Shown here one piece after another: positions 4,100 to 59,503 of a stretch of 64,000 nucleotides of DNA. The DNA is taken from assembly GCF_030028105.1 (NCBI RefSeq), contig NC_092370.1:176586647-176650646 (forward strand), written 5' to 3'. Made by a program: the position numbers and the translations under genes. Positions within the stretch are counted from its first letter, which is position 1. Each line of letters begins with the position of its first letter. Below the pieces are notes generated by a model. That model searched no databases. It was not told the origin of the DNA and was given only the letters and a program-made list of their open reading frames with translations. Source of the stretch: Mobula birostris. Its lineage: Eukaryota.

Positions 4100-5030
4100 T
4101 CAAAGTCTAAGTAAATTTATTATCACAGATATATCATCATATACTACCTTGAGATTCATTTTCTTGCAGCTATTTACAAGAAAATAAAAAGAAGTTATGA
4201 AAAAACTACAAACGGTATATTAAACAAAGCCTTACAAACAACCAATATGCAGAAGATAAATTATGCTAGTAAAAATATAAATAATATTGAGGATATGAAT
4301 TGTCGAGTCCTTGAAAGTGAGTCTGTAAGATGTGGAATCAGTTTAGAGTTGAGGTGTGTAAAGTTACATGTCAGTTGAGTTACTTGGTGGTTGTTGGATA
4401 ATTACTGTTCCTTGGTGGTTGTAGGATAATTACTGGTGTGGACTTAAGACTCCTGTACCTCCTGCCCAATGGTATTTGTGGGAAGAGAGCATGACCTGGA
4501 TGATGAGTGTCTTTCATGATGGATGCTCCTTTCATATGGCAATGTTCCATGTAACGGTGCTGAATGGTGGGGAGGGCTTTGCCTGTGATGGACTGGGCAA
4601 TATCCACCACTTTGTGTAGACTTTTCCATTCCTGGGATTTGGTGTTTCCATAGCAGGCCATGATGCAACCAGTTAAGATTCTCTCCACTCTGCATCTATA
4701 GAAATTTGTTGAAGTTTTTGATGGCGTGCTGAACCAACACAAACCTCTAAGTAGAGGCACAGTTGACCTTCTTTATGATGGCATTTATGTGTTGGTCCTA
4801 GGACAGATCCTCTAATATGATAACAGTAAGGAATTTATAATTACCCACTCTCTCCATCTACAATCCTTTAATGAAAACCGGTTCATTGACTGAGGGTTTC
4901 TTTGGTTTTGCTGATGTTGAGTGAGAGGTTGTTGTGGCACCATTGGACCACATTTTCAATCTCAATCCTATGTATGTGCCGATTCATTATAACCTTTGAT
5001 TCGACTAGCAACAGAGATGTTATCACCAAC
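4100..5030 (-). mobile_element. Rex1/Babar LINE, 3' half of a copy interrupted at ~5030
   Basis: ORF 4380-4760 (NFYRCRVERILTGCIMACYG...HPGHALF...GRRYRSLK) followed by the 3' UTR. Confidence 0.85.
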
Positions 5031-6150
5031 TCTCACAGCCCCTAGGACCCTGTAATTTCAACCTATGAGTCCGATGTGGGAAGATCCCTTCTGGAGGGTG
5101 AACCCTTGGAAAGCATCCAGCCCAGGTGGGGAACCTGACCGAGTACTAAAGACCTGTGCTGAAACTGGCTGGAGTGTTCATTGAGATCTTTAATCTTTCA
5201 CTTTGGCAGTCTGAAGTACCCACCTGTTTCAAACAGACTTCAGTTATACCAGTACCTAAGAAGAATGTGATAACCTGCCACATATCCAGTAGCACTTACC
5301 TCCATAGTGATGAAGTGTTGGTGAAGAAACGTATCACTCCTGCTTGAGAAGTGACTTGGATCCACTCCAATTTGCCTACCAGCACAATAGATTCACGCAA
5401 ATGCCATTTCATGGGCTCTTTATACATACGTCAGAGTGCTCTTTATTGACTACAGCTCGGCATTTAGTACTATCATCCCCTCAAAACTAATCAATAAGCT
5501 CCAAGACCTGGGCCTCAATACTTGCTTGTGCAATTGGATCCTTGATTTCCTCACTTGCAGACCCTAGTCAGTTTCAATTGACAACACCTCCTCCACAATG
5601 TCCATCACTGCAGGTACACCACAAGGCTGTGTGCTTAGCCCCCTGCTCTACTCAGTCTAAACTTATGATTGTGTGGCTAAGCACAGCTCCAACGTCATAT
5701 CTGTTTGCTGACGACACCACTGTTGTAGGCCGAATTAGAGGAGGTGATGAATCAGCATAGAAGAGGGAGATTGAAACAACAACAGTCTCTTACTCAATGT
5801 CAGCAAGACCAAGCAGTTGATTATCGACTTCAGAAGGAGGAAACTGGAGGTCCATGAACCAGTCCCCATTGGGGAATCAGAGGCGGAGAACGTCAGCAAC
5901 TTTAAATTCCTCAGTTTTTTTCATTTCAGAGGATCTGTCCTGGGTCCAGCATGTAGTTCTTTTTTTCTTCTTTCTTTTTGTATTTGAACAATTTGTTGTC
6001 TTCTGCACACTGGTTGTCTGCTCTTTTGGTGTGGACTTTCATTGATTCTATTATGGTTATTGGATTTATTGAGTATGCCTGTAAGCAAATGATTCTCAGG
6101 ATTGTATATGACATATATGTACTTTGATAATAAATATGCTTTGATATTCG
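5030..6150 (+). mobile_element. Rex1/Babar LINE, 5'-truncated, nested in an opposite-strand Rex1
   Basis: [13 protein letters not shown]...PTCFK...IPVPKK; LDPLQFAY; LFIDYSSAF; LFADDTTVVGRI; 3' end with aataaa near 6128. Confidence 0.85.
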
Positions 6151-6151
6151 A

Positions 6152-6845
6152 AACTTAAATATGATGTTGGAGCTGCGCTTAGCCACACAATCATAGGTAT
6201 AAAATGAGTAGAGTAGGGGGTTAAGCTCACAGCTTGCTGAAGGCGATGGTAGATTAGATGTTGTTGCCAATCCATACTAACTGGGGTATGCAAGCGAGAA
6301 AATAAAGGATCCAGTTGCATAGGAAAGTATTAAGACCTAGGTCTTGGAGCTTAGTGATTAGATTCAAGGGGATGATAGTATCGAATGCTGAGCTGTAGCC
6401 AATGAAGAGCATCCTGATATAGGCACCTTCATTGTCCAGATGCTCCAGAGCTGAGTCAAGGGCCAATGAAATGGCATCTGCAGTTGACCTGTTGTGACAG
6501 TAGGCAAACTGGAATAGATCCCAGTCACTCCTCAGACAAGAATTGCTATGCTTCACGACCAACCTCTCAAAGAACTTCATCACAGTGGATGTGAGTGCTA
6601 CTGGACTAAATAGTCACTGAGGCAGGTTACCACGTTCCTCTTGGGTACCTCAGACTCCAAAACAAGAAGCTGAAGATGTCCATAAACTCTGCAACCAGTA
6701 AATTAGCACAGGTCTTTAGAACTGGGCCAGTTGAGCTATCTGGGCCAGATGCTTTCCATGGATTCATATTCCTGCAGGAAAGTCTCTCATTAGCCTCAGA
6801 GAATGAAATCACAGTATCATTAGGGACTGTGGGGGTTCATGAGAT
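6152..6845 (-). mobile_element. Rex1/Babar LINE, RT portion continuous with 4100-5030
   Basis: ORF 6254-6583 (QFAYCHNRSTADAISLAL...YIRMLFIGYSSAFDTIIP). Ends at SSNIIFKF and resumes at ~5030. Confidence 0.85.
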
Positions 6846-7093
6846 TATGAGTGAATACATTAGTGGAATCAAAGTGAACCTTACAAAGTGAGTAAATCGA
6901 GCTGAACAATCACCTTTTCACCATTCTTCTCTGACTCAACTTTGTTCTTTTCCTTGGGTAATAGGAAGGGGTTCACTGCCCTATATCTTGTCCTTCTATA
7001 GATCCAAGTTTTGCTGCTGCTCACATCTCCAACCTAACAGTATGTTTTTCAGTGACACGCCTAGTGATAATATAGTTTTTATTGTATCACTTC

Positions 7094-7294
7094 TCTTGTG
7101 TATGTGGCCTGTTTACACAACTATGTTATTAATAAAAACGTGGGAGACAGGAGCTAAGTTTCATGGTTCCTTACTGGTAGAGTCTGAACTTTTACTCACA
7201 CACATACAGATCCCTACGCACCTAATAGCGCATGCAATGATGTGTTACTACAACATAAAGTAGACCCTTATTATAATGTAGGCCATACAGTACA
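7094..7294 (-). repeat. 3' LTR (201 bp)
   Basis: Aligns without gaps to 10750-10950 with 22 mismatches by manual count. Minus strand begins TGTAC; the terminal CA is mutated to GA. Confidence 0.95.
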
Positions 7295-7307
7295 CTCCTC
7301 CCCTTTT
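7295..7307 (-). other. Polypurine tract
   Basis: Minus strand AAAAGGGGAGGAG immediately upstream of the 3' LTR. Confidence 0.9.
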
Positions 7308-7403
7308 ATTTTAATAGTGTATCAACTGTTTTTTTTTTACTGGGTCACTATGCTAAACAAATTTGTCTACCCCAACATACAAACACCTACCATTTGTTTA
7401 CTT

Positions 7404-7461
7404 AGTAACTTAATAATATCAAATCATAACAAAGTAACTTAATAATATCAAATTATAACAA
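7404..7461. repeat. 29-bp tandem duplication in the 3' untranslated part of the LTR element
   Basis: agtaacttaataatatcaaat(c/t)ataacaa twice. Confidence 0.9.
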
Positions 7462-7493
7462 GCCTTTTTTTTTACTTTGGGTCTAAGACCCAT

Positions 7494-7555
7494 TTATAAC
7501 TCAAGTCTCTAGGGGGAGGGGTGGTTCTTCTCTGCCTCTCTGGATAACGACTGTC
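7494..7555 (-). pseudogene. Residual C-terminal tail of Gypsy pol/integrase
   Basis: Reads DSRYPERQRR..PP..RLEL* with a frameshift, matching the RYPxRxRxPPxRL ending typical of Mag-type polyproteins. Confidence 0.6.
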
Positions 7556-7658
7556 AATAAACTTGTTTGTTTTAATACAAATTTCCATATAAAAATCATG
7601 AAAAGTTGACCTCTGAGAATAGGGAGTTAAGATGTGCGCCTCCAACTTGCTAAGAGTT

Positions 7659-8595
7659 CTAGGCAGCAGATCGTCTCTGTATAATGAAGACTGCTCTGTG
7701 CAGCTGTCCTAGATATATACGCATCTTTGTGCTATCACTTGTCTTCCTTACCCATATCTCATTTGTTCCCCAACTGAGCTAATTACATAGCCAATCTTCG
7801 TATTCTCCTTAGATTCCAAATAGATAGCCTGACCTTTATGATACCATCTCTTATTGTAATATAACTTTCCATCTTCTATTCGTCCTTCATATCTTTGTGC
7901 TAGTGATTCAGCAGGAGTGCTGAGAAGATGCTCAGTAGAAGATAGAGATGCTGGTCTTTTTGGAGATTTAAGCCGATTGAGAGTTTGCAGATCTTCCGTT
8001 ATCTGTTCATCTGTTAACAAGTAATGTAACTGCACAGGTGCAGGTTTTCATCTTCTGTCTGTAATTGGAACAGGGTCATTAGGTCTCCTCCTTAGTTTCC
8101 TAGTCGTTATTGGCTCTATCTCCATAGACTCTCCTGTGAGTTCCATTGTTAGCCTCTCATTCTCAATCATCTTTTTTCTTTTCTTCTAACTCAATCTTTT
8201 TAACTTCAAATCTCTTCACTGCAGCTTTCTTCTCTTTAATATAATTCCTTTCCACTTGTTCTGTCTCCAGTTGCAGAAAAAGCTCTGCATTTCGTATTGT
8301 TTCCTTGTATTTTTGATCTAGTTTCTTCACCCTTTTCTGATACTCCTGCAAAGTGTCTTCCTATAACTGCTGTAGCTGTCCTTTGAGAGATGTCAATTTC
8401 TCCTGGTACATCTGCCCTTTTACTTCCAGGTAGTCTTCATCATCCTGCTTATTGGCAATATCTGTCTCTCTTGCTTCCTCTGTATCTTTATCCGAGTCGT
8501 GGCCACGGATACTGCATTCGTCCTCATCGTCAACGCTGTTTAGCTCCTCCTTGTCGTTGTAATAGTCGACAATGGATGAGGAGAGCTGTGGACAT
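7659..8595 (-). pseudogene. SUDS3: Intronless, start-to-stop retrocopy of Sin3 histone deacetylase corepressor complex component SDS3
   Basis: [17 protein letters not shown]...[17 protein letters not shown]...[17 protein letters not shown]...[20 protein letters not shown]...[13 protein letters not shown]...LLTDEQI...KSPKRP...[25 protein letters not shown]...[21 protein letters not shown]....IIQRRSAA*. Disabled by frameshifts (~8575, ~8170, ~7768), stops (8361-8363, ~8050) and a 24-nt deletion. About 100 nt of putative 3' UTR with ATTAAA follows (7556-7658). Confidence 0.95.
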
Positions 8596-8633
8596 CTTCC
8601 CAACCGAGCTGCCCTCCTTTGTTGACGCATCTT

Positions 8634-9199
8634 TATTCGTCCATCGTCATCATCGATGAAGACCTCGACACCATTGATGGTGCCCAGACTAGCTCATGAT
8701 TTGGATTTAAGTGAGGGAGAGTTGCGCAGCGTCAGCCTCACTCTCTCTTCCCAATTCCCATCTGGATCCAATGGCAAGACAGAGTCGAGATAGCTGGAGA
8801 TGGGACTAGGCACAGTGGATAACCAGGATGTCTTCTGTGTCTTGTTGTGCTCTACCCGTTCCATGACGCTTGCAGAGTCTGTCTTCTTGACCATTGGACC
8901 TTCCATTAGTTTCATCCACTCAATCCGCCGGAGTCTGTCTTCACATGCTGGGATAGACATCTCCCTATCTCACCGAGGGTTTGAGACCCATCGGCTTCCC
9001 TCACCTGGTTTAGCCGTTTAGCCGGCTTGTTGAAGTCGTTGCCCGGGGTGTGGCCACTGTCACATGCAAACAGCTACGAGGAGCCACAGGTGAGAGCTGA
9101 GTGCCAGGTGGGGACCAAAGGTGGACTAACCGCCTTGAAAAGGACGTGACATGTTCCCCCACCAGAGGTGCTACCACTCCCTGACACCCCATACACCCC
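8634..9199 (-). mobile_element. 566-bp non-autonomous retroposon (SINE/RTE-like) inserted secondarily into the LTR element
   Basis: Flanked by an 11-bp imperfect TSD tgacgcatctt (8623-8633) / taacacatctt (9200-9210). Minus-strand 3' end is gatgatgacgatg-like. Confidence 0.7.
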
Positions 9200-9530
9200 T
9201 AACACATCTTGTGCCTTGATGGTGTGCCAATCCAACTGGATTTTCCTGAGCCATTCCCGTCCTAGCAACAGTGGTCCTCCATTTTTCAGTACATAGCGGT
9301 TCAGCTGCTGTGTTTTGTCTTCGTAGGTCACTGTCACTTTAATTTTGGCTTTGGGACGCACTTTCTGTCCTGTGTAAGTCTTTAGCAGTAGTTTAGTTCG
9401 TTTCAGAGGTATGTGAGAAAACAGTCGTTAGTAGTCATGTACAGAGATCACTGTTAAAGCTGGGCCTGTGTCCAACTCCATTTTCAGTCTCACGCTTGCC
9501 ACTTGTGGAGTGATCCTTATCACTCTTCAA
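9200..9530 (-). pseudogene. Gypsy aspartic protease (disrupted)
   Basis: LKMELDTGPALTV...LKTYTGQK...GGPLLLGREWLRKIQLDW. Confidence 0.9.
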
Positions 9531-10367
9531 TCATCTGTCTCTTTCACGCTGTGAAGCAGCAGACAAGACAATTCACTTTCGTCTGAGTTGTTTTCATCAG
9601 AACTGATTTCTTCCATTTTGTGTACATTGTTGTGTTTTCCTTTCTGGGGTTTCTTGTTTCTCTGTATTTTGTCTGTTTTCTGTTGTTTACTAGCTTTGCA
9701 TACTCTGCCAGTGTGGCCCTGTTTGCCACAGTTTCTGCATTCTTTGTCTTTAAACCAACAGTCCTCAGGGTCATGTGACATGTTCCCATAATTGTAACAT
9801 TTATTTCCTTCATTTCTGTTTGGTGACATTTTATTCGTAGCATACTCGAGAGATTTTTTTGTACCTCTGAAGCAGCTCGTGCTTCTGTTTCCGTTGATAT
9901 TGCGATGTTCGGCACCTTCTGTAATTAAGGTCTTTTTCACTCAGGAGCTTCTTCTGTGTGGTTTCACATTCCGCACACTAACCTGTCCCTCAATGTATCC
10001 GATAGACAAGGTTCAAATTGACAACGTTCCAATAACTTGCGCAATTCACAATATTCAGAAATGCTTTCATTTTTGCTCTAATTCTGTTTGTGAAATTTAA
10101 ATCTTTCAGCAATGACCAGTGGTTTGGGGTTTAATGCTGTTGGAGAGTGTCTACTATTTGCTTGAATGTTTTGTCAGCTGGCTTTTCAGGGGTTAACAAG
10201 CTCTGTAGCAGCCCATATGTTTTTGCTGTCATAATACTGAGTAAGACACTGGCTTTCTTTTCATCATTAACACCATTAGCCTCATTATATAACTCCACTC
10301 TCTCAATGTAAGTTGCCCAGTCTTCAATGCCACTATCAAATGCTGTAATGGTTCCAATCATTGCCAC
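9530..10367 (-). pseudogene. Gypsy gag (disrupted) with two zinc knuckles
   Basis: IGTITAFDSGIEDWATYIERVELY..ANGV..EKKASVLLS...YGLLQSLLTPEKP...LVIAERFKFH...LRDRLVCG...CYNYGNMSHDPEDC....ECRNCGKQGHTGRVC. Confidence 0.92.
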
Positions 10368-10519
10368 CTTTGTTATGTTAATTTAGCCCCTTTTCCCCCT
10401 TTTTTTCTTTTTGACTCATGTGTCCTTTTTGCTAGCCCCACGAGCGCACTCTGTCTAGATGTGTGTGTCGCTCCTTTTTATCTCCCTTCTGGGGCAGGCA
10501 GACCCTCAGCCCCTGGGGG

Positions 10520-10693
10520 TCAGCGCTGGCTGTGGTCTCGGCTGGACATGCTGCGGCTCCGACTGTGTTTCTTGGCCTCCCGATGTTCCTGACTCCGGCT
10601 GTGCTCCTGCTTCCTTTCGGACTCGTGGCCTTGCTCTGTCTCCTTCTCCCACTCCTTGGCTTGTTCCTTGCGCTCTTCCTCCAAGTGTCGCTT
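10520..10693 (-). pseudogene. Captured 3' coding end of an RS/RE-rich splicing-factor mRNA, ACIN1 (Acinus)-like
   Basis: A frame absent from the ORF track reads KRHLEEERKEQAKEWEKETEQGHESERKQEHSRSQEHREAKKHSRSRSMSSRDHSQR*. Reverting CpG-decay codons gives ...KEREKETER...REHSR...KKHSRSRS..SRDRSRR*, resembling the ACIN1 C-terminus as I recall it. Confidence 0.6.
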
Positions 10694-10735
10694 TCAACTA
10701 AAACCCGGCGTTCCGATAAGATGTAGGTTCATTAA

Positions 10736-10746
10736 CCTCGTCACCA
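10736..10746 (-). other. Primer-binding site
   Basis: TGGTGACGAGG, 3 nt downstream of the 5' LTR end (TGG is complementary to tRNA CCA). Confidence 0.75.
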
Positions 10747-10749
10747 ATT

Positions 10750-10950
10750 TGTTGTGTATGTGGCCTGTTTACACAACTATGTTATTAATAAAAACACAAG
10801 AGACGGCAGCTAAGTTTCATGGTTCTTTACTGGTAGAGTCCAAACTTTTACTCACACACATACAGATCCCTACACGCCCAATACTACATGCAACAGCATG
10901 TTACTACAACATAAAGTAGTCCCTTATTATAATGTAGGCCATACAGTACA
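10750..10950 (-). repeat. 5' LTR (201 bp)
   Basis: TGTAC...CAACA termini on the minus strand; pairs with 7094-7294. Confidence 0.95.
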
Positions 10951-11241
10951 ACTTCCGTGCGACACTCCGTGTTTTTGAGAGATGTATTTAACCATGATTA
11001 AAATAGCTATCTCGTGTCTCAGATGATAGGTCTGGTGAAATGGACTGACACAGGGTGACTTCAGAAGTAATTTGTGTGCACAAGTGTGATCTTATTATTT
11101 GTGAAGTCTTATTTGACTCTGATGGCAAATTTTGATAATTATGTTGTTCAAGTATGTACTGTAGTTTTAAATACTTTACTGTCCATCATTTTGATGTCTT
11201 TTACTTCAGGGTTTCCATACTCATAGGGCCTATATCCAAAT

Positions 11242-14180
11242 AATCAGAATCAGGTTTATTATCACTGGCATGTGTCATGAAATTTGTTAACTTAGCAGCA
11301 GCAGTTCAATGCAATACATAATATAGAAGGAAAAAAATAAGTAAGTCAATTACAGTATACGTATATTGAATAGATTGAAAATCATGCAAAAACAGAAATA
11401 ATGCACTGTATATTTAAAAAAGTGAGGTAGTGTTCAAGGGTTCAACGTCCATTTAGGAATCAGATGGCAGAGGACAAGAAGCTGTTTCTGAATCACTGAG
11501 TGTGTGCCTTCAGGCTTCTGTACCTCCTACTTGATGGTAACAGTGAGAAAAGGACATGCCCTGGGTGCTGGAGGTCCTTAGTAATGAACACTGCATTTCT
11601 GAGACACCGCTCCTTGAAGATGTGCTGGATACTTTGTAGGCTAGTACCCAAGATGGAACTGACTAAATTTGCAACCCTCTCCAGCTTCTTTTGGTCCTGT
11701 GCAGTCATTCCCCCAAACCAGACAGTGATGCAGCCTGTCAGAATGCTCTCCACGGTACATGTATAGAAGTTTTTGAGTGTATTTGTTGACGTACCAAATC
11801 TCTTCAAACTGTTAATGAAATATAGTGTTTGTCTTTCCTTCTTTATAACTGTATTGATATGTTGGGACCAGGTGAGGTCCTCAGAGATCTTGACACTCAA
11901 AAACTTGAAACTACCTACTCTCTCCACTTCTGATCCCTCTATAAGGATTGGTATGTGTTTGTCTTACCCTTCCTGAAGTGCACAATCAGCTCTTTCGTCT
12001 TACTGACATTGGAATGCCAGGTTGTTGCTACAGCACCACTCCACTAGTCGGCATATCTCACTCCTGTATGCCCTCTCCTCTCCATCTGAGATTCTACCAA
12101 CAATGGTTGTATCATCAACAAACTTATACATGGTATTTGAGCTACGCCTAGCCACACAGTCATGGGTATAGACAGAGTGGAGCAGTGGGCTAAGCATACA
12201 TCCCAGAGGTGCACCAGTGTTGATAGTCAGTGAGGAGGAGATATTATCACCAATCCCCACAAATTGTGGTCTTCCAGTTAGGAAGTCGAAGATCCAATTG
12301 CAGAGGGAGGTACAAAGGCCCAGGTTCTGTAACTTCTCAATCAGAATTGTGGGAATGATGGTATTAAATGCTGAGCTATAGTCGATGAACAGCATTCTGA
12401 CATAGGTGTTTGTGTTGTCCTAGTGGTTAAAAGCTGTGTGAAGAGCCATTGAGATTCCATCTACTGTTGACCTGTTGTGGCGATAGGCAAATTGCAATGG
12501 GTCCAGGTCCTTGCTGAGGCAGGAGTTCAGTCTAGTCATGACCAACCACTCAAAGCATTTCATCATTGTTGATGTGAGTGCTACCAGGTAATAGTTATTA
12601 AGGCAGCTCACATTACTCTTCTTAGGCACTGGTATAATTGTTGCCTTTTTGAAACAAGTAGGAACTTCTGCCTGAAGCAGTGAGAGGTTGAAAATGTCCT
12701 TGAATACTCTCGCCAGTTGGTTGGCACAGGTTTTCAGAACCTTACCAGGTACTCCATCGGGACCTTCTGCCTTGCGAGGGTTCAGTCTCTTTAAAGACAG
12801 CCTAACATCGGCCTCTGAGACAGAGATCACAGGGTCATCAGGTGCAGCAGGGATCTTCACAGCTGTAGTTATATTCTCCCTTTCAAAGTGAGCATAGAAG
12901 GTGTTGAGTTCATGTGGTAGTGAAGCATCGCTGCCATTCATGCTATTGGGTTTTGTTTTGTAGGAAGTAATGTATTGCAAACCCTGCCAGAGTTGTCATA
13001 CATTCGAAGTCGCCTCTTTGCCCTTGAAACATCTCTCCGCAAATCATACCTGGTTTACCGGGGTGGGTCGCAGACTTGAATGCCACAGATCTAGCCTTCA
13101 GCAGATGACGTACCTCCTGGTTCGTCCACGGCTTTTGGTTTGGGAATGTACAGTAAATCTTTGTAGGCACACACACATCCACACAGGTTTTAATGAAGTC
13201 AGCAACAACTGCAGCATACTCATCCAGGTTCGAAGATGAATTCCTGAATACAGTCCAGTCCACCAGTTCAAAGCAGTACTGTAGGCACTCCTGCGCTTCC
13301 CTTGTCCAAAGCTTCTTGGTCCTCACTACTGGTGCTGCAGTCTTCAGTCTCTGCCTGTACTCAGGGAGTAGAAGTACAGCCAGGTGATCACACTTCCAGA
13401 AGTGAGGGCATGGAACAGCATGGTAGGCATTCTTGATGGTAGTGTAGCAATGGTCCAGTGTGTTGTTTACTCTAGTATTGCAAGTGATCTGTTGGTGGTA
13501 ATTGCTTAGTTTTTTCAGACTGGTCTGGTTAAAATCCTTGAAAATGATGGTGAAGGCATTAGGGTGCGCTGTTTCATGCATGTTGATCCCATTGCTCAGA
13601 TCATCTAAAGCCTGATTGACATTGGCCTGAGGTGGAATGTAAACTGCTACCAAAATGATCCCAGAAATCTCCCGCGGTAAGTAAAAAGGACAACACTTAA
13701 CTGCTAGATATTCCAGGTCTGATGAGCAGAGTTGGGACAGCACTAGTATATTTGTGCACCTAGAAGAATTGATCATGAGGCTTACTCCTCCACCTCTGCT
13801 TTTGAGAGACCCTATAGATCTATCCTGACAGTGTATAGTAAACCTGTCAATCTGAATCACTGCATCTGGTACAGAAGGGGTTAACTAGGATTCTGTGAAA
13901 CAAAGGACACATGCTGTCCTACTGTCCCTCTGATTCAGCACCCTAGCTCTGAGACCATCGATTTTATTCACCAGAGACTGCATGTTTACCAGCAAGCTAG
14001 TCAGTATTGGGAGTTTAAAACCCCGTTTCCTTAAACACGCTTGTATCGCTGACCTGCTGCCATGTTTCCTGCATCGAATCCTGTGACAACTCTGTCCCCA
14101 GTCAGCATTGTTTGTGTCAGTTTCAAGCAGCAATAGTTTTAAGGCATCTTTGTTGACTGTACTGACTTTGGAAGCAGTTG
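11242..14180 (-). mobile_element. Near full-length Rex1/Babar LINE (APE endonuclease + RT, frameshifted)
   Basis: VLCFTES, RGGGV, VYIPP, DFN, TLDHCY, DHLAV (endonuclease); [32 protein letters not shown] (RT); (ctgatt)n tail at 11242-11253. Confidence 0.93.
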
Positions 14181-15030
14181 TGCTTTTTAGCTGTATTTCC
14201 TTTATCCCTCTGTCTATCTAAGAGACTCTTAAGTGTCCCCAATGTATTTGCCTCTACCACCACTCCCAGCAGCATGTTCTATGCACCCTTCTATGTAAAA
14301 AAATACTACCTCTGACATCACCCCTATACTTTCCTCCAATCATCTTATAAATATGACCACTGGTCTTAGTCATTTCTGCCTTGGGAAAATGTCTCTGGCT
14401 GTCCACACTATCTATGCCTCTCATACATCTCTATCAAGTCACCTTTTATCCTCCTTCACTCCAGAGAGAAACACCCTAGCTTGCTCAACCTATCCTCATA
14501 AGACATGCTCTCATATGGTCACATGAGGTGACCAGAACTGGACACAATACTCAAAGTGTGGTCTAACCAGAATTTTATTGAACTAAAACATTTTGCAGCT
14601 CTTGAACTCAATCCCTTGACTAATGAAGGCCAACACACCTTATGTCTTCTTAACTACCCTATTAACTTGTGCTGCAACTTTGAGGGACCGATGGCTGCGG
14701 ACTCAAAATTTCTCTGCTCAGAATCCTGCCATCAACTCTGTACTCTGCCTTCAAGTGTGGCTTTCTAAAGTGAATCACCTCACCCTTTCCATCTGACACT
14801 CCTCAGCCCTGCTCTGCATCCTATAAATGTCCCATTGTAACCTATACCAACCTTCTACACTATCCACAACCTTCATGTTACCTGCAAACTTACTAGCCCA
14901 CCCTTCCACTTCCACATCTAAATCATTTATAAAAATCACTGGTCACCGATCTCCGGGCAGAATACGCTCCACCCTCTGCTTTCTGTGGACAAGCCAGTTC
15001 TGAATCCAAACAGCCAGGTTCCCATAGACC
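14180..15030 (-). mobile_element. CR1 LINE 3' portion, degraded; continues at 16257-16535
   Basis: Resembles the CR1 copies at 37.5 kb and 58-59 kb. The 16277-16519 ORF has SQHGFLRGRLCL...IDVVYRDFS. Confidence 0.8.
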
Positions 15031-15046
15031 TTCTATTCATTATTCC

Positions 15047-16256
15047 ATGAATAATATGAGCTGCCTTAATGACTATCACCCGGTAGCACTCACATCTACA
15101 GTGATGAAATGCTTTGAGTGGTTGGTCATGACTAGACTGAACTCCTGCCTCAGCAAGGACCTGGACCCATTGCAATTTGCCTATCGCCACAATAGGGCAA
15201 TGGCAGATGCAATCTCAATTGCCCTTCACACAGCTTTAGACCACCTGGACAACACAAACACCTATGTCAGGATGCTGTTCATCGACTACAGATCAGCATT
15301 TAATATCATCATTCCCACAATCCTGATTGAGAAGTTACAGAACCTGGGCCTCTGTACCTCCCCCCGCAATTCAATCCTTGACTTCCTAACCGGAGGACCA
15401 CAATCTGAGTGGATTCGTGATAACATCTCCTCCTCACTGATGATCAACATTGGTCCACTTCAGGGATGTGTGCTTAGCCCTCTGCTCTGCTCTCTATATA
15501 CCCATAACTGTGTGGCTAGGCATAGCTCAAATACCATCTATAAATTTGCTGATGATACAACCATTGTTGGTAGAATCTCAGGTGGTGACGAGAGGGCAGA
15601 CAAGAAAGAGATATCCCAACTAGTGGAGTGGTGTCGCAGCAACAACCTGGCACACAATGTTAGTAAGAGGAAAGAGCTGATTGTGGACTGGAAGAGATTT
15701 GGTATGTCAACAAATACACTAAAAAACTTCTATAGATATACCGTGGAGAGCATTCTGACAGGCTGCATCACTGTCTGGTATGGGGTGGGGGCTACTGCAC
15801 AGGACCGAAAGAAGTTGCAGAGGGTTTTAAGTTTAGTTGGCTCCATCTTGGGTACTAGCCTACAAAGGAGTGGTGTCTTAGAAAGGCAGCGTTTATTATT
15901 AAGGACCTCCAACACCCAGGGCATGCCTTTTTCTTACTGTTACCAACAGGTAGGAGGTACAGAAGCCTGAAGGCACACACTCAGTGATTTAAGAACAGCT
16001 CCTTCCACTTTGCTATCTGATTCCTAAATGGACATTGAGCCCTTGGACACTACCTCACTTTTTAAATATATATTATTTCTGTTCTTGCATGATTTTTAAT
16101 CTATTCAATATACGTATACTGTTATTGATTTACTTATTATTATTATTATTATTTTATTTTTTTTTCTTCTATATTATGTATTGGATTGAACTGCTGCTGC
16201 TAAGTTAATAAATTTCATGACACAAGCTGGTGATAATAAACCTGATTCTGATTCTG
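15047..16256 (+). mobile_element. Rex1/Babar LINE, 5'-truncated with internal deletion, inserted in CR1
   Basis: ORF 15047-15970 RT with KFADDTT, very similar to 11242-12620 in inverted orientation; (ctgatt)n tail. Confidence 0.92.
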
Positions 16257-16535
16257 AACCCATGCCTCCTGACTTTCTAAATGGGCCCTGCTATGGAGAA
16301 CCATGTCAAACACCTACTAAAATCCCTGTACACCACATCAATTACTCTAACTTCATCAATTTGTTTTGTCACTTCCTCAAAGATTTCAGCCAGGCATAAC
16401 CTGCCCCTTAAAAAGCCATGTTGACTATCTATAATCAAACTATGCTTCTCCAAATACTCATAAATTCTATCTCTAAGAATTCTTTCCAATGATTTGCTCC
16501 CCACTGAGTTAAAAGTCACTGGTCTATAATTCCCA
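16257..16535 (-). mobile_element. CR1 RT fragment
   Basis: SVGSKSLERILRDRIYEYLEKHSLIIDSQHGF. Confidence 0.8.
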
Positions 16536-16759
16536 TATTTTATTTGTAGTGTCTTCTTTTGGATATGTGGAGCTCAATATATTAACAACAACCTTGGCCC
16601 TCTTTTGTAATAAGATACTCAAGAATCTATCATTTTCATTATTATCGTTATTCAGTCTGAGAAACAATGACTCCTTTACAGATGTTATCAGAAGAAAAAT
16701 ATATTGCTGGAGCTTACTTCATACTGAATTTCAAACTATGACACTTTTTCCCCTTAGTT

Positions 16760-17080
16760 GGGTGGCATTGAACACAACAGCGCTCCTGTCCCCCAGCTGC
16801 TCCAGTGACCCTGGCCCATGGTAAGTCTCTGTGGAGTACTTGAGATTTTCCCAAGTGCTCTAGTTTCCTTGCATGTCTAAATACATGCTGGTTGATAAAT
16901 CAGTTGACTACTATAAAATACAAATTATGTGGAATATTTAGAAATGGGGGTGGGGGGAATTAATGGGCATGTAAAAGAAAATAAGTTACAGTGCAATAAA
17001 TGGAGGCAGGATGGGTTTGCCCTGAGAGTTGGCCGTACATCATTGTAGAGAATGGCCTCCTTTATGGTTGTGTACATATA
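16760..17080 (+). mobile_element. Old tRNA-derived SINE remnant
   Basis: Decayed cagctccagtgaccctgg ... ctgtggag ... gtgctctagtttcc pattern with a CR1-like tail (aatggcctcct). Confidence 0.4.
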
Positions 17081-17700
17081 TGAGACAAAATTGTGCAACA
17101 AATTATCTTTACAAATAATGTTATGTCTGAAATCTTAACAATGAAAACTATATTCAAATATTGTCAGGAAAAACACACTGTAAATATTGCAGTAAAATAA
17201 AAATTTAAGTCTTGTGTCTTCTGTCTTCTCCTATCATGAATAATGAATATGCTTGAAATGTTATAAAATCTGTTTTGTTTGCAGAGCCGTGATTTTTCCA
17301 TGGTTAAACTTTCAAAGCTTTATTATGTTTTTTCTTGTAAGTTCAGCCAACTAGATCATATGGATTACTGTTATATTAGGACACATCAACAGAAGAAACA
17401 TGATCCAGCAAAAATAGATCTTGACAAGAGGAAAGTCATTCAAATGAAAAAGCATTTTCTGTCACATTTTTAATATTTCTGTCTTCTCCTTTGCTGGGTG
17501 AGAATGCAGTCAGTTGGCAATCACAATGGAGTCTCTAAGTCTAATCTTGTTGCTGAGCTCATTGTTTCATACCTCAAGTCATTGACTGAATTTTAGACAA
17601 AAAAATGTAGCAAGACTACCTTATGCTTTGTGCAATGTGTTCACTCCTAATAAATAATGGCTAGCTTATGTGAGTTTCCTTGAACATGTTGGCTTGATCA

Positions 17701-17826
17701 GACTTTTTTCCCAGAAAATAAACTGTTTATCAGCCACCTATCTTTTTGTTAAAAATGGAACAGAGTGTTCCATAGTTAACAAAAAGATAGTAGGCTAATA
17801 AACAGTTTATTTTCTGAAAAAAAGTC
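17701..17826. repeat. 126-bp imperfect palindrome (foldback/MITE-like)
   Basis: gactttttt..cagaaaataaactgtttat..ctatctttttgttaa..atggaaca-gag-tgttccat..ttaacaaaaagatag..ataaacagtttattttctg..aaaaaagtc. Confidence 0.9.
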
Positions 17827-20800
17827 AGTTGGTACAACATATGCATTTCATGTATGTTCCGTTGTTTAAGAGTTGCAGAATACTTATTTCATGTAATATA
17901 CAGTAGTGTAACTCACACATACCATAAAATATTTTTGTTAATAAAGCTGTGAATGGGTGAGGAAATTCAATTCTGTCATAAATTACTCTAATCTTACATC
18001 TAGTGGGATAGGAAAACAAGATATTTTTCAATCTGAAATCCCGAATGTCAGATAAATCATCAAATTTATCAATAAGACAACTTTTAGGGCTTTATATTCA
18101 ATTGCAGCCTAATAAAATGTATTTTAAATGTGCTTTAGTGCATTGTTTCCCTGCTCTGTTATGCATCTCTCCAAATTATACATTTTTAGAAACACATATA
18201 CATAAACACTACAATTGCTCTTTATATCAAACTATTGTCAATAATAAGATTAACAGGCTTACTTTCCCCCTCCAAGAAACATTTTTATCTTGGGAATTCT
18301 TGTGACTTAGTTTTAAAACCTTTCAATGCTACCAACCACAAATTTATCATTCAAAGAATTGGTCTCCAGGAGGGAGAGGCATTCAGTAGCACAATTGCAC
18401 AACTTTCCCAAAATAGACACTTTGTTTGCTGGACTATACATTTTCAGAGGCAATAACTGACAGCAAGAATGTGAAATCTGGATTAGACACACATGCTTTG
18501 CATCAAGCCTACAAATCCCCAAAAGCTTTATTTAAACCTGATTCTTGCAGTTGGTGAAGTATTTATGTCTTGTGAAGTGCAAGTGTATTGCACAACAGTA
18601 CTGAAGGAAAACCACGATTCTTCACAGATTAGTACCATAAAATCATGAAGTTTCAAGCAAATAGTCACACAATGAAAGTTGTGGTTTTTGTACTCAATAT
18701 CATGTTGAGTCTTTTACCAACTGCTACAGAAAAGGACTTCCAAAAAAAGTTGTAATCTTAAGAATTATTTTTTTAATTGAATCCAATTATAGAACATTCA
18801 ATCGTGACTCGTATTTCCTGATATTCAAACCTAGCTATGGTCTCCTCATGTCAGAATTTAGTATTTAACATGATATCTTTAATTCAACTTTTATGATAAA
18901 GTTAATTTGGGACTGAGTACTCTTAGCAACCATAATGGTAAATGCTGATGTAAAATTATGCTTAATTAAAATTGTTTAAGAAACAACGAGATACCCTGCT
19001 ATTTATTTGATTTAATGGTTTTCCTTATCCATATCTACCTGGTAAGTTGTACCGCTATCTGCTTTTTCAAATAGGTTTATTTCAGCTTTACACAGTGAGT
19101 TGTTGTTCAAGAGTTTAAGCAATTTTGTTTTTGTTAAATTTGGATGGGAGTCTTTTGAGCCCTCGCAAATACCTTCACACCCGATTAGTGTGATTCATGG
19201 GTTTTTTTAACAACAATAATGCACGGCTCAAAAATCTGCTTTTTCAGTAAATTCTATTAAGATCTGGAATTCAGATTGGTGCAAGAGCATCTGTGTTAGA
19301 AGGTTTGATCAGTTTTCTTTTGAATTAAGGAGTCTCAATTGCATTATTCAAGCTATTATAGAGAATGATATAGTGAGCACATTTGTTACAATTTTTAATG
19401 AAATACTTACTCATTTGTATGCAGATGATGAGTGTGCATCTGTAACAGCAATATTAATGAATACATACATATTTATCATATTTGAAAAATTCTCATTTAT
19501 GTACAGAATTATCATTTTGTGAAACTTATTTCTTGTAGTAAGAATATACAGTGTTGAACATTTGAGTATCATGAACGTTCCTCACAGACTATAACTTTGC
19601 ATAACAGCACAACAAAATTATCTGGTTGATCTACTCAAAAAGAAAAGCTGATGGTCCTGTATCAAGCAGTTTAAAGACTGGAATGACTATGGTTTCTCTT
19701 CTATTGCTCGTCATATATATCTTTTCAAAGAATTCATTCCTCTTTACGTGAAGGAATACTTCCTGACATGTGTCTTAAATTTACTGTTCACTGGTATGAA
19801 CATAAGCTTCCTTGTCTTAAGAGTAATACATTTTTTCAATCTTTTGCCTTAGGTTTTTTTTTAACATTTTGTTAGAAGATTTCAATCCCTCTATGAAGTT
19901 GAACTGTCTCTTGTTTCCTTTCAGTTTTTCTCATTTTTCAGTTAAGTCTCTTGATAATGAAAAATCAGCTTTTAAGTCTATTTCCTGCAAAACACTAGGT
20001 TGGAATATTTCAATTATGTCTTACTAGTTAAAAATGGGCACAGGATTCAATGTACAGTACTACCAGCACATCACAGACAGAATACTATTTTCTCTGAGTC
20101 TAATAAAGATATTTAGTCTGTGTAATGTATTAAACACATTTGTTTTCACAAATAATTGGACACTAAAATAAAAAAAAAGTCAATTCTCAAAGCAACATTA
20201 GGATGTACATGTTCTAACAGGATTTATTTTGTCTTTCTTTGCCTTTATAGTCTTCACCCTTTTGATGTTTAGTATGACCCAGAACTTTAAATCTGGTTTC
20301 TAAATTTAAAGCAACTTGATATAGAAGCATTAAGGAAAAAAAAAGTGTTTCTTGAGGTTAGTAGAATCAACTAAAAATAAATTTCAATTTAATTTGCATG
20401 AACTTTCAATTATTTTAGATTTTTTGGCTTTATATTGGTCAAGGTAGATAATCAAACCATCAGTGGTGACTCAATTTGAGTACTGTGTTAACGCTTTCAT
20501 TGAACTAACTTATGAGACATTGAAATTCTAGTGCTATTACTTGTGGTATGAAGAGATAAAGGAAGATTTTCTGCAAGATCTGTGAAATTGTCAGATGTAC
20601 CTTTTAGGAGCATTATCCAGATGAATTATTGCCAATTAGCAGCATCGTTTCAAATGCTTTAATACTTCCATGGAGAATTGAATTTGGGCTCTTTTTTATA
20701 TAGTATTTTAGTACTCACTAAAATAAAAACATGGGGTATGCAGAATCAGTATTTTTAAAAGGTAAAAAGAATCTATGCTACTTTCTGTCAAAAAAAGGAC

Positions 20801-23049
20801 TTATGTTCAATGTAAACATTTGTAACTGGAAGCAACCCTGCACTTTGCTCATTAGATATTTAGAAAAAGGTTCTCTGTTTCCAAGTTATTGGAATATCTA
20901 TAAATTCTCTAACCAGCCCCAGATGATTGTAGCTGGTAGCAGTGAATATTTTCATTCAGCGATGTTTTCATGTTATGACAAAACCAATCAAGTTAATTTA
21001 CACTTTTGGTCATGACAGGGCTTTCACCCAAGAACTCCATAGCTAATCAAAAACGCATATGCTCAACCTTCTCCCATGATACAGATGGGTAGAATTTGGG
21101 TGATTTTACCATTGTTTTCACCTTATAGACTGTTAATTCTTAAACACATGTTGTGAAACCCATAAGGTATCTAATATATTGCATTATTCTATAGAAATAT
21201 ACACATAGGGAGCAAATATGAATATATGACATCACTAAATCATTCTTCAGTATGCTAATATTACTATATAATTAGTTGTTTTCTGTCCTTTTAGTTCAAA
21301 TAATAATAGCCCTTACCAATGTTTACTCTTTGTTCTGAATTGAGCTCTGATAGAAAGGATGAATGATATTTGAATAGCACTAAGTAAATGTCAATTTATC
21401 TGTTTGGTATCCATGAGTCTTTATATTGTGACGAGTCAGGACCAGATTGAATTTCTTGGTTGGATTTGGCGTATTTTAGAATCCAGTACAAATATATCTA
21501 AAATATCCCTTTGCATAATAAAGAGCCTGCAAATATATTACAGGCTAGATCATGGAAAATCTATAGTTTGTTTTGTTAAATATGTAAGTACCATATATAA
21601 CATGAAAAACAGGGGAAAACCCTATTGATCTTATACTTATTTATGTTATATCATGTTATATGTCTGGTTGTACATTATTTTTACTTTGTTTGACCTAAGC
21701 ATTCAAAGGAAAGATAAAATTAATTCCGATAAATTTTGTATCATTTTTATCTACCCATTTTCTTTAATAAACTCTATCTCATTTTCTTCAGTGCCTTTCT
21801 TACCGCCGTCAAAACTTCTTAAAATACTAATAAGCCCAAACTCAGCATGTTCTATCTCCTTATCTTCATTGCTTTATCATGAACAATATTGTCAACCTAT
21901 TTCAGACTCTTATCTCTGACCATTTCTGTATGTCCTCTGACACTGTTTCATGATTATTGTTAAATCTTTTGGATACCTAGTCTTTGCTCTATGAGCTTTC
22001 TTTCCAAACCAACCCATACCTTCTTTTCCTACCTTGCTCTAACCAATTTTTTTGGAACCATCTCCTATAAGTCTCACTGAAGTTTAGCATGCAGTTGCTT
22101 TCCCCTTTAAAGTATCTTTGAAAACTTTACTATATTAACGATACTTCATTAGGGCAAGTTATTCGCTTATTCTTGAATTTTCTTACTTCTTTCTTTCAAA
22201 ATGTGTTTTATAATCATAAATTAGCAATAAGATTTTGTGGCTCTATAATGCAACAAATATAACAGTCTTAATTAGAACATTGAGGCCTGGTCTGTGTTTG
22301 GTAACAGATGTATTAGATCCACCAAAATATTTCAGTCACGGAGATGTTAGTATAGAACTGTGGGAGGAATGGGTAGGAGTTTAGTGGCAGCTGAAGATTG
22401 GAATTTCAATATGTGAGCTGAAAATTGGCCAGAACAATAGAGCTGCTTTTTCATAAAAATATGTATGAGTGAGGCAGCTGTAAAACCACATCTACGAGCA
22501 TTCCTCCAATAGAATTTATTATTCTAATTACTAAATAATGATTCCTAGCCTATCTAATTATGACCTGAGTTACATTGCACTCTTCCTCCTCCAGCTATTA
22601 AGTCCAAATCTTGAAGTTGCTTCTAACGTTTTCCTCACTTCAGTGATTCCATTTCTGGAGTCATCCTTTATTACTGCTTTCTTTAGCAATTTCAAAGTAT
22701 TCTGTGCATCAGCTACTGGATGTTTTAAGAGAATCATTAAGTTGCTACTGGTTGGGAGAATTAGACATTTCTTAAAGCACTTGCCAGTGGTACTGTGGCA
22801 TGCAATGCTCCTCCAGTATTATGTAGGCAAATGATTAAGAATGGAGATATGCGAAGTCAAATTAGATACTGACACTGTTATCCTCTGGATTTTAAAACTA
22901 TAACTAAATGCTGTATTTCAGAGATTATGATATTTTACTAGGATATAGAAGCAAACAGTGTCCATTAAAGGGAATCACTGTTTTAATTTTATCAATCTAA
23001 TTTGATTTATATATTGTGGAATCTAACATTCCAAATAAAGATATAAAAG

Positions 23050-23330
23050 ATTATTTTTTAAAGATAGCTTTATTTGTCACACATACATTGAAACATATAG
23101 TAAGATCTGTAGTTTGCCTCAATGACCGAGGATTGCTGAGGGTGGCCCGCAAGTGTTGCTATACTTCAACATACCATGTCTGAAAATTACTAGCCCTTAC
23201 AAACTCATACGTCTTCAGAATTTGGGGAGAGAACCGAAGCACCTGGAGGTCACAGGGAGAATGTAGTGGCGTACATTGGACCTCGATCACTGGTGCTGTA
23301 AAGTGTTATGCTGACCACTGTGCTACCACA
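23050..23330 (-). mobile_element. tRNA-derived SINE with Rex1-like 3' end
   Basis: Minus strand tggtagcacagtggtcagc (A-box-like head), central acattctccctgtgac..ggtgcttcggtt, tail gtgacaaataaagcta. Confidence 0.55.
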
Positions 23331-25457
23331 CGCACCCCCCCCCCCAAAGCTGTCCCCAGAAATGCTGTAGCTCTGCAAAGATTCATTACAATTGTAGATA
23401 AACTTAATTATCTACAATTATAGTGAATTTATTTAATCTGTCTAACTTCATTATTTTGTTAGACTTACCAGCTCTGGAGTATAATAACTAAACTATGATG
23501 CTAGCTAATACAAGCATACTACCATAATAATTTGTGTAGTACATACATAATTGAGTTGTTAATGCATTCATGCCAAACTTTTCGGTTTCTGTATCCCTTC
23601 AGTGATTAACATTATGATAGAAAATTCATATTTCGACTTCAGAGATCTTAATTTCCATTCTATAATTTATTCATTGAATTAGGGCCAATACAGTTTGATG
23701 TCTTTATGTCATAACCAAGTCGTAGATGCTGCACTGAGATAAAGTTGTGTCAGAGTGATTGGGCTCATGAGACAGCATTTTGGTCTATTTCATTCCATTG
23801 GATTTAAACTAAACTCAATACACATAATGTGCACAGAAGGATTGTCCTGGCTGGATCGAAAGTTCTGTAAATAATTATGTTCTGAGAAGCAGTTCAATCC
23901 ACCCCAGCATAGTTTAATATGATTGATGGAATTTCACAATGCATTTGTAAGCATCAAGTCAAAGTAGATGTTTTTCTTTTAATCAATTATAAATGGAGTG
24001 CCCTTCTGAACTATATTTTATACTCTAATTCCTGAATGACAATAACAAGTAACTTTTTAAAATCAGTTGTTAAAATGAGCATGAAATTAAAGAAGATGGA
24101 TAAGTCTTTAGCCACCGACCTATGTGTGCTATTCCTAATAGCATAAGCAGCAATATCTGAGCTTTCTGTTATGACTTAACCAAAAGCTTGCTATATATTC
24201 TTATTTTATTAGTACTCAGAAGTAAAATTATGCTAAATGAATTCATAATAAGTCCATTGGGATATGTTCATGAAAAGTTTGATTGTGAAGCATGCTGACC
24301 CTGAAGGTCACAGTAAAAAGTTAGTTGAGGCACTTAAAAGTCGAAAAAGGGTATTGAGGAAAAAACTGGAAATACCATAGTGAGAGTAGTAATACGAACT
24401 CTATTGCTGATCTTTCTTTGACCTGAAAGTTGTTTTAAACATTCATAAGCTCAATTAGTCTTGGTCTGTGATGATATTCAGATCAAAGATATAGTTAATG
24501 AGTAGGAAAACTTTATGCTTTTCTATTAGTTTCACTGTACCAGTCTGGTGATTTTGAATTATAGTGCGTAGTGTTTACCTTGTAATAGAATATGAGCACA
24601 ATTAATATAATAGATGATTAAATGGTCATTTCCCGATCATTTCATTTCAACACCCTAGCATCTGACAGGTTACCTTGAAATATATCGGATCTGGTGATTG
24701 CCCCTGGAGTTTCTTCATTCTTGTTTGCAACAATTAGTGTGCATCTGAACTAAGTTCTTGAGCTGCAAAGATATCTCTGAACAATCTTTAAAAAGACTAT
24801 TCTATCTTCACTGTTGTGGTACAGGAGGATGAATGTAGGTAGAAGAGGATCTGTGCTTTGCTCTTGAAGTTTTAGCAATATTTTGTTATTGCCCATACAC
24901 AGAATTATAAACAAGTACACAATTTGAACTCAGTGTGCAAAAGGTATGACACCAAGCCCAAAGAAACATTCACGGAACTTTTACTCATTCAGAATTCAAA
25001 ACACTTCTTGGGAATATTAAAGCATTATCGTGCCAGCTGGAGGGAAATTGTAATTACACTGAGTGGTATTTCCCTCAATGTCTTGGGCTGCAGAGCAATA
25101 GTGGAAGACATCTAATGCCCTCAATAGGCAGGCAGTATAGCACACTGCACATACTTCCCATTTCTTTCTTTCCTCCGAATGCCATCATCACTTTTGCCCC
25201 TGAAAGGACCATCTCAAGAATAACTGCTTTCAATGATCTTTTATTAAGTAGGCCCATGTTCTATTATAAATGTCACCTCAGCAACACGTGCTCTGGCCAC
25301 CCATTCCCTTCACAACAGCTATTAGCAAAAATAGTACTAAATAAAAACATGCATGTGCCCATATATTTCTTATTTCACCCTTTTTTTGCCAGCTGTCACT
25401 CATCTGTTAATCCAGTCATCATTTTCTCTAATAATGTGTAGAGTATGAGAGAAGGTT

Positions 25458-25552
25458 TGTTTTAATGTAAGTGCTGCTTCCACTTTAAAGAAGAGGTTGA
25501 ACATTTCAGTTTCTGGTAAAAAAACATTCCAACCTCTGCTATAGGAGATCAA
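25458..25552 (+). repeat. Copy 1 of a ~95-bp local direct repeat
   Basis: Matches 26268-26366 with a few substitutions and indels. Confidence 0.85.
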
Positions 25553-25929
25553 TGTTATTTTGCTATTACTAGATTTCTAGTTGTGCACAGATGCGGTCAA
25601 CATCTTACTTATCTCCCAATTTTCCATTCCCTCTTAACCCCATAATCTTGGTCCTCAAATGGCATTTAAGTGAACCTCAAGAATTTCCATTAACCACGGA
25701 CAATGGAACTATTTCAAGTGAGCAGCCAGCAGTAGTATTTTAGGAAGTAAGACTTGGTTGATGTTGTGCTCTTCGTTCTGTGGTTCAGGATTAGTTGTTA
25801 AAGCGAATATCTTTATTTTTTCTTTTATTGGCCAGAGGGAGGTAAGGCTGTGGTGCGAAAGCCAAAGAGAGAATGCTATTGTTCTGATGCATTTTAGACC
25901 AAATGCTGACTTTTTAAAATTAATTTTAG

Positions 25930-26720: not shown

Positions 26721-27039
26721 CAGTATATGACCTTTGGGAGTTCCAGACCGGTTCCTGCCAAAATTGCCTATGGCCTAGGAGCAATGGTCTGAAAATCATT
26801 CAATGATGCACCCTGTGAGGAACAGTTAGAACTAATTACATATTAGGCAGATTGCAAAGAAGAAACACTTAAAAGTGTTTCCTGTATTTAAAAAATTGCA
26901 CAAAACAATCTGTTCTCAATCATGATTTTCTTTTTTTATCTGATCCTGGCAGCTGTTGTGCCTCATCCAGTCAAATGGTCTTTGTACCAACAGCAGTTGT
27001 GGAATAAAATAAGGAGACCAGCATCGATTGTGTCAAATG

Positions 27040-59365: not shown

Positions 59366-59503
59366 GGGGGTGTCACGTGGGGTCTTGGTATGGAGTGGAC
59401 GTGTGTCCCGGGAGCTGCACCTACCTTCACCTTTACCTCACCCAAACAGCAGTTAATTCTTATCTTTTAAGAGACTGAAGTGAGCTGTAACGGGCTGAAT
59501 GAA

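Follow-up and report, generated by a model that had tools for sequence, protein, structure and literature searches.

The closest described systems, as set out in the accessible parts of two papers, are cases in which elements bounded by long terminal repeats (LTRs) have captured host messenger RNAs. In the LTR-mediated retrocopies of metazoans (Tan et al. 2016; PMC5131818), a host cDNA without poly(A), often in frame, takes the place of the internal open reading frames (ORFs) between the LTRs, the switch points show a median microsimilarity of 6 bp, the products can move again as non-autonomous elements, and one of them, the mouse 'Super' retrocopy, joins four genes. Among the crocodilian endogenous retroviruses (ERVs), CrocERV29 carries KIT-ligand and CrocERV31 nectin3, in 9 and 6 copies, respectively; whole host mRNAs were captured and later multiplied, in-frame insertions and deletions are common to the copies, and the captures predate speciation (PMC4299795). 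Helper-dependent transduction is likewise known for spliced host sequence from maize Bs1, which combines three genes, and HERV-K/FAM8A1 (PMC5131818), and for host sequence from acutely transforming retroviruses (v-src, v-kit; PMC4299795). The present analysis concerns a related element in the ray Mobula birostris. A stretch of 64,000 nucleotides of NC_092370.1 (hereafter the window, to which all positions given without a locus or contig name refer) carries on its minus strand a Ty3/gypsy LTR retrotransposon that retains only gag, protease and the final codons of pol; reverse transcriptase (RT), RNaseH and integrase are gone, and an intronless copy of SUDS3, the gene for the chromatin corepressor subunit SDS3, stands in their place.

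The element departs from these systems in several respects. The retrocopies of Tan et al. occupy single loci or few sites (PMC5131818), whereas the ray family occupies at least 331 loci, outnumbers its pol-bearing form and has split into cargo subfamilies. The CrocERVs are retroviral, hold the captured gene in an ORF of its own, next to env or instead of it, and are reported to be under purifying selection (PMC4299795); the ray family, in contrast, is gypsy-type, with an in-frame replacement of pol, hundreds of copies and no selection signal. From Bs1 and the transforming retroviruses it differs in carrying a chromatin corepressor subunit, in its vertebrate germline setting and in the absence of phenotype evidence. 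The nearest relatives by sequence are the fish single-ORF Ty3/gypsy elements named 'K02A2.6-like' (P0122-P0135), with 53-63% gag-protease identity among the ten best matches, an ORF of ~1311 amino acids, the order protease-RT-RNaseH-integrase, short LTRs and a 5-bp target-site duplication (TSD); the window element differs from these in having a host cDNA instead of RT, RNaseH and integrase. The family presumably belongs to the Mag clade, a label assumed from the single ORF, the CCHC motif and the resemblance of its primer-binding site (PBS) to the Ser type. A description of a SUDS3-carrying family was not found in the literature searched, Repbase, Dfam and most subscription papers lying outside that search. 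The mechanism of capture is already known; the scale and the serial exchange of cargo appear unreported. A single LTR gene capture in a vertebrate can thus become a family of hundreds of copies, outnumber its helper and keep acquiring host mRNAs, and the family is a natural archive in which transduction of the retroviral kind can be dated and counted.

Host SUDS3 is a single gene on G000:C36 with 12 exons and a 960-nt coding sequence, encoding the protein P0002 together with its isoform-specific insert. The captured cDNA lacks all 11 introns and is correctly spliced over intron 7, an AT-AC (U12-type) intron (G000:C36:8205909-8208993, L035). Neither a poly(A) tail (longest A-run 4 nt) nor a TSD of its own was found around it, as a preliminary description made from the sequence of the window alone had held, and the marks of a pseudogene made by a long interspersed nuclear element (LINE) are therefore lacking. 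Instead the cDNA ends within the 3' untranslated region (UTR), at pol sequence, the host UTR running well past both of the points at which it is cut in the family. Microhomology at the junctions was assessed against random switch points. The 5' junction has seven nucleotides, GGGCAGC, common to the pol linker and the SUDS3 5'UTR (at least 7 nt expected by chance with a probability of 0.0006). The 3' junction occurs in two forms in the family, of which the window copy has the short one, with 5-7 nt of microhomology (at least 5 nt by chance, 0.006). The long form carries ~345 nt of UTR and ~15 nt less pol; since the short form keeps that additional pol sequence, it is not a simple deletion of the long one, an origin that was considered and rejected, and the two forms would point to a second recombination with helper RNA. 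The earlier proposal of capture by template switching of RT, rather than by LINE retroposition, thus agrees with the microhomology at both junctions of the window form and with the missing poly(A) and TSD.

Every copy that covers the site lacks 24 nt of exon 6 (8 residues), the host form being present in 0 of 115, and a pattern for the missing stretch found a single place genome-wide, host SUDS3 itself. The missing residues belong to the coiled-coil region whose structure is 4ZQA (residues 80-163). This shared deletion, together with the single 5' junction, shows that one capture founded the family. The founder lineage fixed 3 amino-acid changes besides the 8-residue loss, in a protein otherwise identical in three batoid records. 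The fixed differences from host SUDS3 (10 synonymous, 3 non-synonymous) were rejected as a selection test, as their synonymous share resembles that of the UTR and they may lie on the host branch. The SUDS3 start codon stands 42 nt past the protease codons and in frame with them in 87 of 94 copies, and natural open frames of 331-428 codons span from the protease into SDS3.

A DNA search for the element gave 504 candidates; all 40 that were scored are near full length, at 87-93% identity apart from the window itself. Junction patterns allowing up to 2 mismatches gave at least 331 protease-SUDS3 junctions genome-wide and at least 208 protease-RT junctions, the latter marking a pol-bearing parent family, with none for the reversed-pattern controls in either case. 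Both numbers are lower bounds because the patterns recovered only 35 of 44 independently found chimeric copies and 24 of 28 pol copies; unplaced contigs may, on the other hand, have caused a few matches to be counted twice. When 30 loci were picked by the tail sequence, 26 carried SUDS3 (window included), 3 integrase and 1 another cargo. Both LTRs could be called with a strict motif in 26 of 75 SUDS3 loci, where the TSDs comprised 15 perfect 5-bp pairs, 9 matching at 4 of 5 positions and 2 worse, with 25 distinct 5-mers. The same junctions are therefore flanked by different TSDs, and the element has integrated as a unit many times, as the preliminary description had expected. It had also held that a single copy with neutral dN/dS would be a one-off capture devoid of functional meaning; substitution does prove neutral (see below), but the family is multicopy.

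The helper dependence that was likewise foreseen is matched by a parent family with the same LTR and gag-protease. The gag-protease region is 82-92% identical to that of the window element in 28 of 30 RT loci, two loci (L190 and L191) are full 4.7-kb pol-bearing copies, and the protein P0123, in which Pfam finds a single pol in the order protease-RT-RNaseH-integrase, aligns collinearly by tblastn along L188, L190 and L191. The chimeric RNA is predicted at 3.3-3.5 kb as against 4.7 kb for the parent. LTR-LTR divergence (Kimura two-parameter distance, K2P) has a median of 0.11 (0.05-0.18) in the chimeric copies and is 0.08-0.09 in the 3 of 12 autonomous loci that were callable. The gag-protease tree built from 114 copies has a star-like shape (terminal branch length 4.86, internal 0.30), and the cargo classes are mixed in it. 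Thus the family shows the features of Ty3/gypsy elements (domain order, TG..CA LTRs, PBS, polypurine tract (PPT) and short TSD), those of a non-autonomous LTR derivative (no RT or integrase, many copies with their own TSDs, a matching autonomous partner) and those of an LTR-mediated retrocopy (an intronless 12-exon gene in place of internal ORFs, with microhomology at the switch points other than the long 3' junction).

Some minor features of the two families were also recorded. The LTRs of L046-L191 measure ~198 or ~223 nt and are often unequal in one element, which suggests a collapsing internal repeat of ~25 nt; a division into LTR 'subtypes' was rejected, both lengths occurring within single elements. 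The bases just past the PBS differ between the SUDS3-type and most pol-type copies. Four pol-type junction matches lie within 150 kb (G000:C21:824552-971008), which a tandem or segmental duplication of a single autonomous copy would probably explain.

The SUDS3 cargo has itself been rearranged and supplemented. A census was made of 60 copies picked by the 5' junction only, being the first 60 new ones among 100 listed zero-mismatch sites. It comprised 17 copies of the short form and 12 of the long form. In another 17 (16 by script and L142) SUDS3 breaks off at nt 698 and antisense RNF213 coding sequence takes over, in 4 an RNF213 insertion sits at nt 677, in 4 SUDS3 1-377 leads into YBX1 and then RNF213, and 6 could not be assigned. 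Of the 54 assigned copies, 25 fall in subfamilies with a shortened SDS3 frame. The identities rest on matches to residues 4091-4334 of human RNF213 (E 1e-52) and to the cold-shock domain of YBX1 (E 1e-49), and the splicing of both cargoes is judged from the continuity of these protein matches. Genome-wide, 58 junctions with antisense RNF213 and 31 with YBX1 were counted; YBX1 is joined in frame in 4 of 4 copies, and in the gag-protease tree two of the YBX1 type cluster with the gags of 13 autonomous copies (support 0.99). A 57-nt in-frame deletion is common to 8 copies. In a sister element that has its LTR and tail in common with the family (L113, 1740-2820; G000:C7, ~102.149 Mb), a spliced cDNA resembling DZIP3, an E3 ligase with six exon matches elsewhere on C7 (35.92-35.94 Mb), replaces gag-pol; this capture, in which gag is lost, is single-copy, a 283-nt piece of it recurring in L152. 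The SDS3 frame of the RNF213 subfamilies ends ~10 or ~30 codons past the join, and the Tudor domain is therefore dispensable for spread. The commonest truncation keeps the helix solved as 2N2H (195-219) and loses the Tudor domain solved as 7SXI, and the YBX1 type is without the Sin3-binding helix, yet has 31 junctions.

Selection on the cargo was examined column by column with non-CpG low-frequency variants in 114 copies. Non-synonymous changes in SDS3 numbered 1731 against 1695 expected and stops 112 against 111.9 expected, giving an omega of 1.02, a value that over these copies reflects mostly decay after insertion. Stops or frameshifts interrupt every one of the 80 well-covered copies, where 1.7 intact ones would be expected. 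Omega is 0.88 for gag and 0.87 for protease in the chimeric copies and 0.91-0.93 for the autonomous pol frames, where shared variants are mostly synonymous (25:15 and 28:17); shared SDS3 variants amount to a handful on the star-like tree. A role of SDS3 as a decoy or modulator of host repression, suggested in the preliminary description, is not supported by these values, nor by the 25 of 54 copies in truncated subfamilies.

The family is probably older than the living species in which it was found. Proteins that are annotated as 'SDS3-like' and lack the same 8 residues occur in two Mobula species, and the five best matches of a family copy are Mobula records. In one locus, L014 (1624-2616, minus strand), an open frame of 331 codons, with a late stop, spans almost the whole of SDS3. 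L014 shares 15 private residues with the annotated 'SDS3-like' protein P0001 of M. hypostoma, five other copies sharing 2-6; each of the two has 11-13 changes of its own. Because of the shared private residues the two are probably one orthologous insertion, whose age would be about twice that of the species split. In a search of sequencing runs, five organisms contained 25-40% of the sampled words; in four runs all 30 bins were covered and the joint of the 57-nt deletion was present in 4 of 4, contigs bridging the protease-SUDS3 junction being seen in 2 of the 4 (among 32 pieces shown). No RNA run stood among the listed holders, six runs with small shares being RNA by guess. For Hemitrygon and Pristis only the parent gene appeared among the best 120 matches, which is weak evidence of absence.

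The reading best fitting these results, and one that is probable, is that SUDS3 was captured in a single template switch, that enzymes of the parent family carried the chimera to hundreds of sites and that SDS3 travelled as a passenger. RT would have jumped, likely once, onto a SUDS3 mRNA packaged in the same particle. Because the LTRs, PBS, leader, gag-protease and PPT are kept, the chimeric RNA should be packageable, and RT and integrase supplied by the helper could reverse transcribe and integrate it. Particles that again and again took up the chimera along with helper RNA and cellular mRNAs may have given rise to the second 3' junction, to the gag haplotypes shared with the helper and to new captures, with antisense RNF213 and sense YBX1 as putative later acquisitions and the DZIP3-like cDNA as one in the sister element. 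A predicted Gag-protease-SDS3 polyprotein would be translated, from which the protease would likely have freed a near-full-length SDS3 at the normal release site of RT. The success of the family is most simply attributed to its retained cis signals and gag, its shorter RNA and its open frame, and not to SDS3 activity. Several observations weigh against this reading. The long 3' junction is without microhomology. The amplified rearrangements that keep the frame number four (the 5' junction, the 24-nt deletion, the 57-nt deletion and the YBX1 join), for which the chance is ~1 in 80, post hoc, so that it may have been of consequence that the ribosome could read on into the cargo. Every subfamily seen retains SDS3 residues 1-125, and all subfamilies except the YBX1 type also retain the coil together with the Sin3-interaction helix. 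The star-like tree leaves hardly any power to test for selection during replication, and a use of gag in cis is not proven, as the omega of gag and protease is just slightly below 1.

Some of these points would be expected if the origin were the same and the SDS3 fusion useful. An SDS3 freed by the protease, its coil shortened and its Tudor domain later lost, would then have served either as a dominant-negative decoy of Sin3-HDAC silencing or as a source of domains for oligomerisation or nucleic-acid binding in the particle. The accessible part of PMC8800102 describes SDS3 as the subunit that brings Sin3L to pericentric heterochromatin, and its Tudor domain as one that binds nucleic acids. The join falls in frame at the protease/RT linker, every amplified indel keeps the frame as does the YBX1 join, the deletion is internal to the 4ZQA coil, the commonest truncation spares the 2N2H helix at the expense of the 7SXI Tudor domain, and the ratio of chimera to helper is 331:208. 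Non-autonomous derivatives, however, often exceed their helpers in number without any function of the cargo. Moreover, omega and stop counts are neutral with no undisrupted copy among the 80, the founder took on 3 substitutions and lost 8 residues in a protein that three batoid records otherwise show unchanged, and the YBX1 subfamily spread without the Sin3-binding helix, which together make a useful fusion improbable. It is equally doubtful, in its fullest version, that a released, coil-shortened SDS3 acted as an anti-silencing decoy, let the chimera overtake its helper and was then followed by the shuffling of host domains in the germline in the manner of an acutely transforming retrovirus; were the decoy true, it would be a transposon counter-defence made from a stolen silencing subunit.

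An origin at the level of DNA, by which a LINE-made SUDS3 pseudogene or a repair capture came to lie in a gypsy copy, pol was lost by a microhomology-mediated deletion and the LTRs then amplified the result, would suit the LINE-rich genome and the long 3' junction and would explain antisense RNF213 more simply. It is nevertheless very unlikely, since the cDNA is without poly(A) and TSD, its 3'UTR is cut at two internal points beyond which the host UTR extends well, the 5' and short 3' ends show microhomology, and independent captures, four genes in the same LTR family, favour recombination at the level of the particle. Hardly more can be said for a domestication of one or more copies as SUDS3-like retrogenes under host selection. 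The NCBI names 'SDS3-like' in two Mobula species and the open frame of L014 with its residues in common with P0001 speak for it, but both sequences gained their further changes while the host protein stayed unchanged, the ratio of non-synonymous to synonymous changes in L014 (28:9) is like the family average and its frame has a late stop, and it is disrupted copies that gave the smallest P values when copies were scored singly (0.006 among 80). Domestication of L014 is thus not supported, constraint not being seen.

The single-capture reading bears on surveys of retrocopies. A 2026 preprint (10.64898/2026.06.26.734816), as far as its accessible part goes, counts SUDS3 as one of the five genes with the most retrocopies in cartilaginous fishes and relates such abundance to non-LTR activity, expression in the germline and filtering by selection, without mention of an LTR capture. 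In the Mobula genome the SUDS3 copies, several of them annotated as 'SDS3-like' genes, are transposon cargo from a single capture, and this LTR family likely explains the ranking in cartilaginous fishes. For SLU7, also on the list of the preprint, only its own exons were seen (5 matches, at one of 7 candidate loci); the other genes of the list are therefore not explained by the family in this genome. The accessible part of the VGP preprint PMC13320880 makes no mention of SUDS3.

The features of the window copy are given in Table 1. All the parts that the preliminary description had read on the minus strand, TSD-LTR-PBS-leader-gag-protease-SUDS3-pol end-PPT-LTR-TSD, were found there with the same bounds.

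Table 1. Features of the SUDS3-carrying element of the window
Feature	Position	Strand	Remarks
5' TSD GAAGT	10951..10955	-	
5' LTR, 201 nt, TG..CA	10750..10950	-	72-87% identity to LTRs of pol-bearing copies
PBS-like sequence TGGTGACGAGG	10736..10746	-	many other copies read TGGCGACGAGG
Leader	10368..10735	-	
gag, zinc knuckle(s); frame broken by stops and frameshifts	9530..10367	-	blastx to P0122-P0127
Aspartic protease region and start of protease/RT linker	9202..9529	-	Pfam protease at matching P0123 residues
Private 569-nt insertion of dispersed repeat	8633..9201	-	8-nt flanking duplication, 7/8 match
5' junction, 7-nt microhomology GGGCAGC (pol linker / SUDS3 5'UTR)	8608..8614	-	
Intronless SUDS3 coding sequence, ATG 8595 to TAG 7659, 12 host exons joined	7659..8595	-	
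SUDS3 3'UTR, short form, to host nt 1073, without poly(A)	7556..7658	-	~110 nt
3' junction, 5-7 nt microhomology (GA)CAGAC (SUDS3 3'UTR / pol end)	7549..7555	-	
Last ~18 pol codons including stop	7494..7548	-	matches L107, L188, L191
PPT	7295..7312	-	
3' LTR, 201 nt, TG..GA	7094..7294	-	
3' TSD GAAGT	7089..7093	-	

In the alignment of the two LTRs, 179 columns are identical and 22 mismatched (K2P 0.12). The PBS-like sequence is taken to match tRNA-Ser; Rfam and tRNA scans of the window gave no match. Gag and protease align to the single-ORF gag-pol proteins of ~1311 amino acids. The Pfam search of the broken frames of the window gave sub-threshold matches only, zf-CCHC in gag (E 0.026) falling below the cut-off, and the active-site motif of the protease (9472-9461) is decayed. 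The SUDS3 segment aligns over its full length with the host mRNA, is matched by SDS3 proteins named from rays and matches the solved SDS3 domain 7SXI (E 7e-19), the PDB search with its N-terminal fragment giving no match. With 2 stops and 3 frameshifts in SUDS3 the copy is dead, as had been noted. The earlier description of the cDNA as running from start to stop is not exact, as it also includes 19-21 nt of the SUDS3 5'UTR and lacks the 24 nt of exon 6. Its position in place of pol holds family-wide, the private 569-nt repeat and the in-frame fusion having been overlooked. The repeat, which in this copy alone parts the protease from SUDS3, is a later insertion, because its site is empty in 29 of 29 other copies compared and 89% copies lie at other sites in L018 (795-1353) and L023 (797-1098). 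It has a GAT-rich 3' end, entered three family copies independently and is presumably a non-LTR element. A 29-nt tandem duplication lies at 7404-7461, within the 3' untranslated region of the element.

Outside the element, a long AT-rich stretch (16535-28048, GC 31-36%) showed no match to the repeats of the loci compared. Decayed LINE-type RT/endonuclease frames occur at 5000-6900, 11490-16000, 28400-29700, 34900-35800, 49800-50700 and 57000-64000, the last of these regions including stretches of 409 and 359 codons (61693-63999) that are taken to be L1/Tx1-like.

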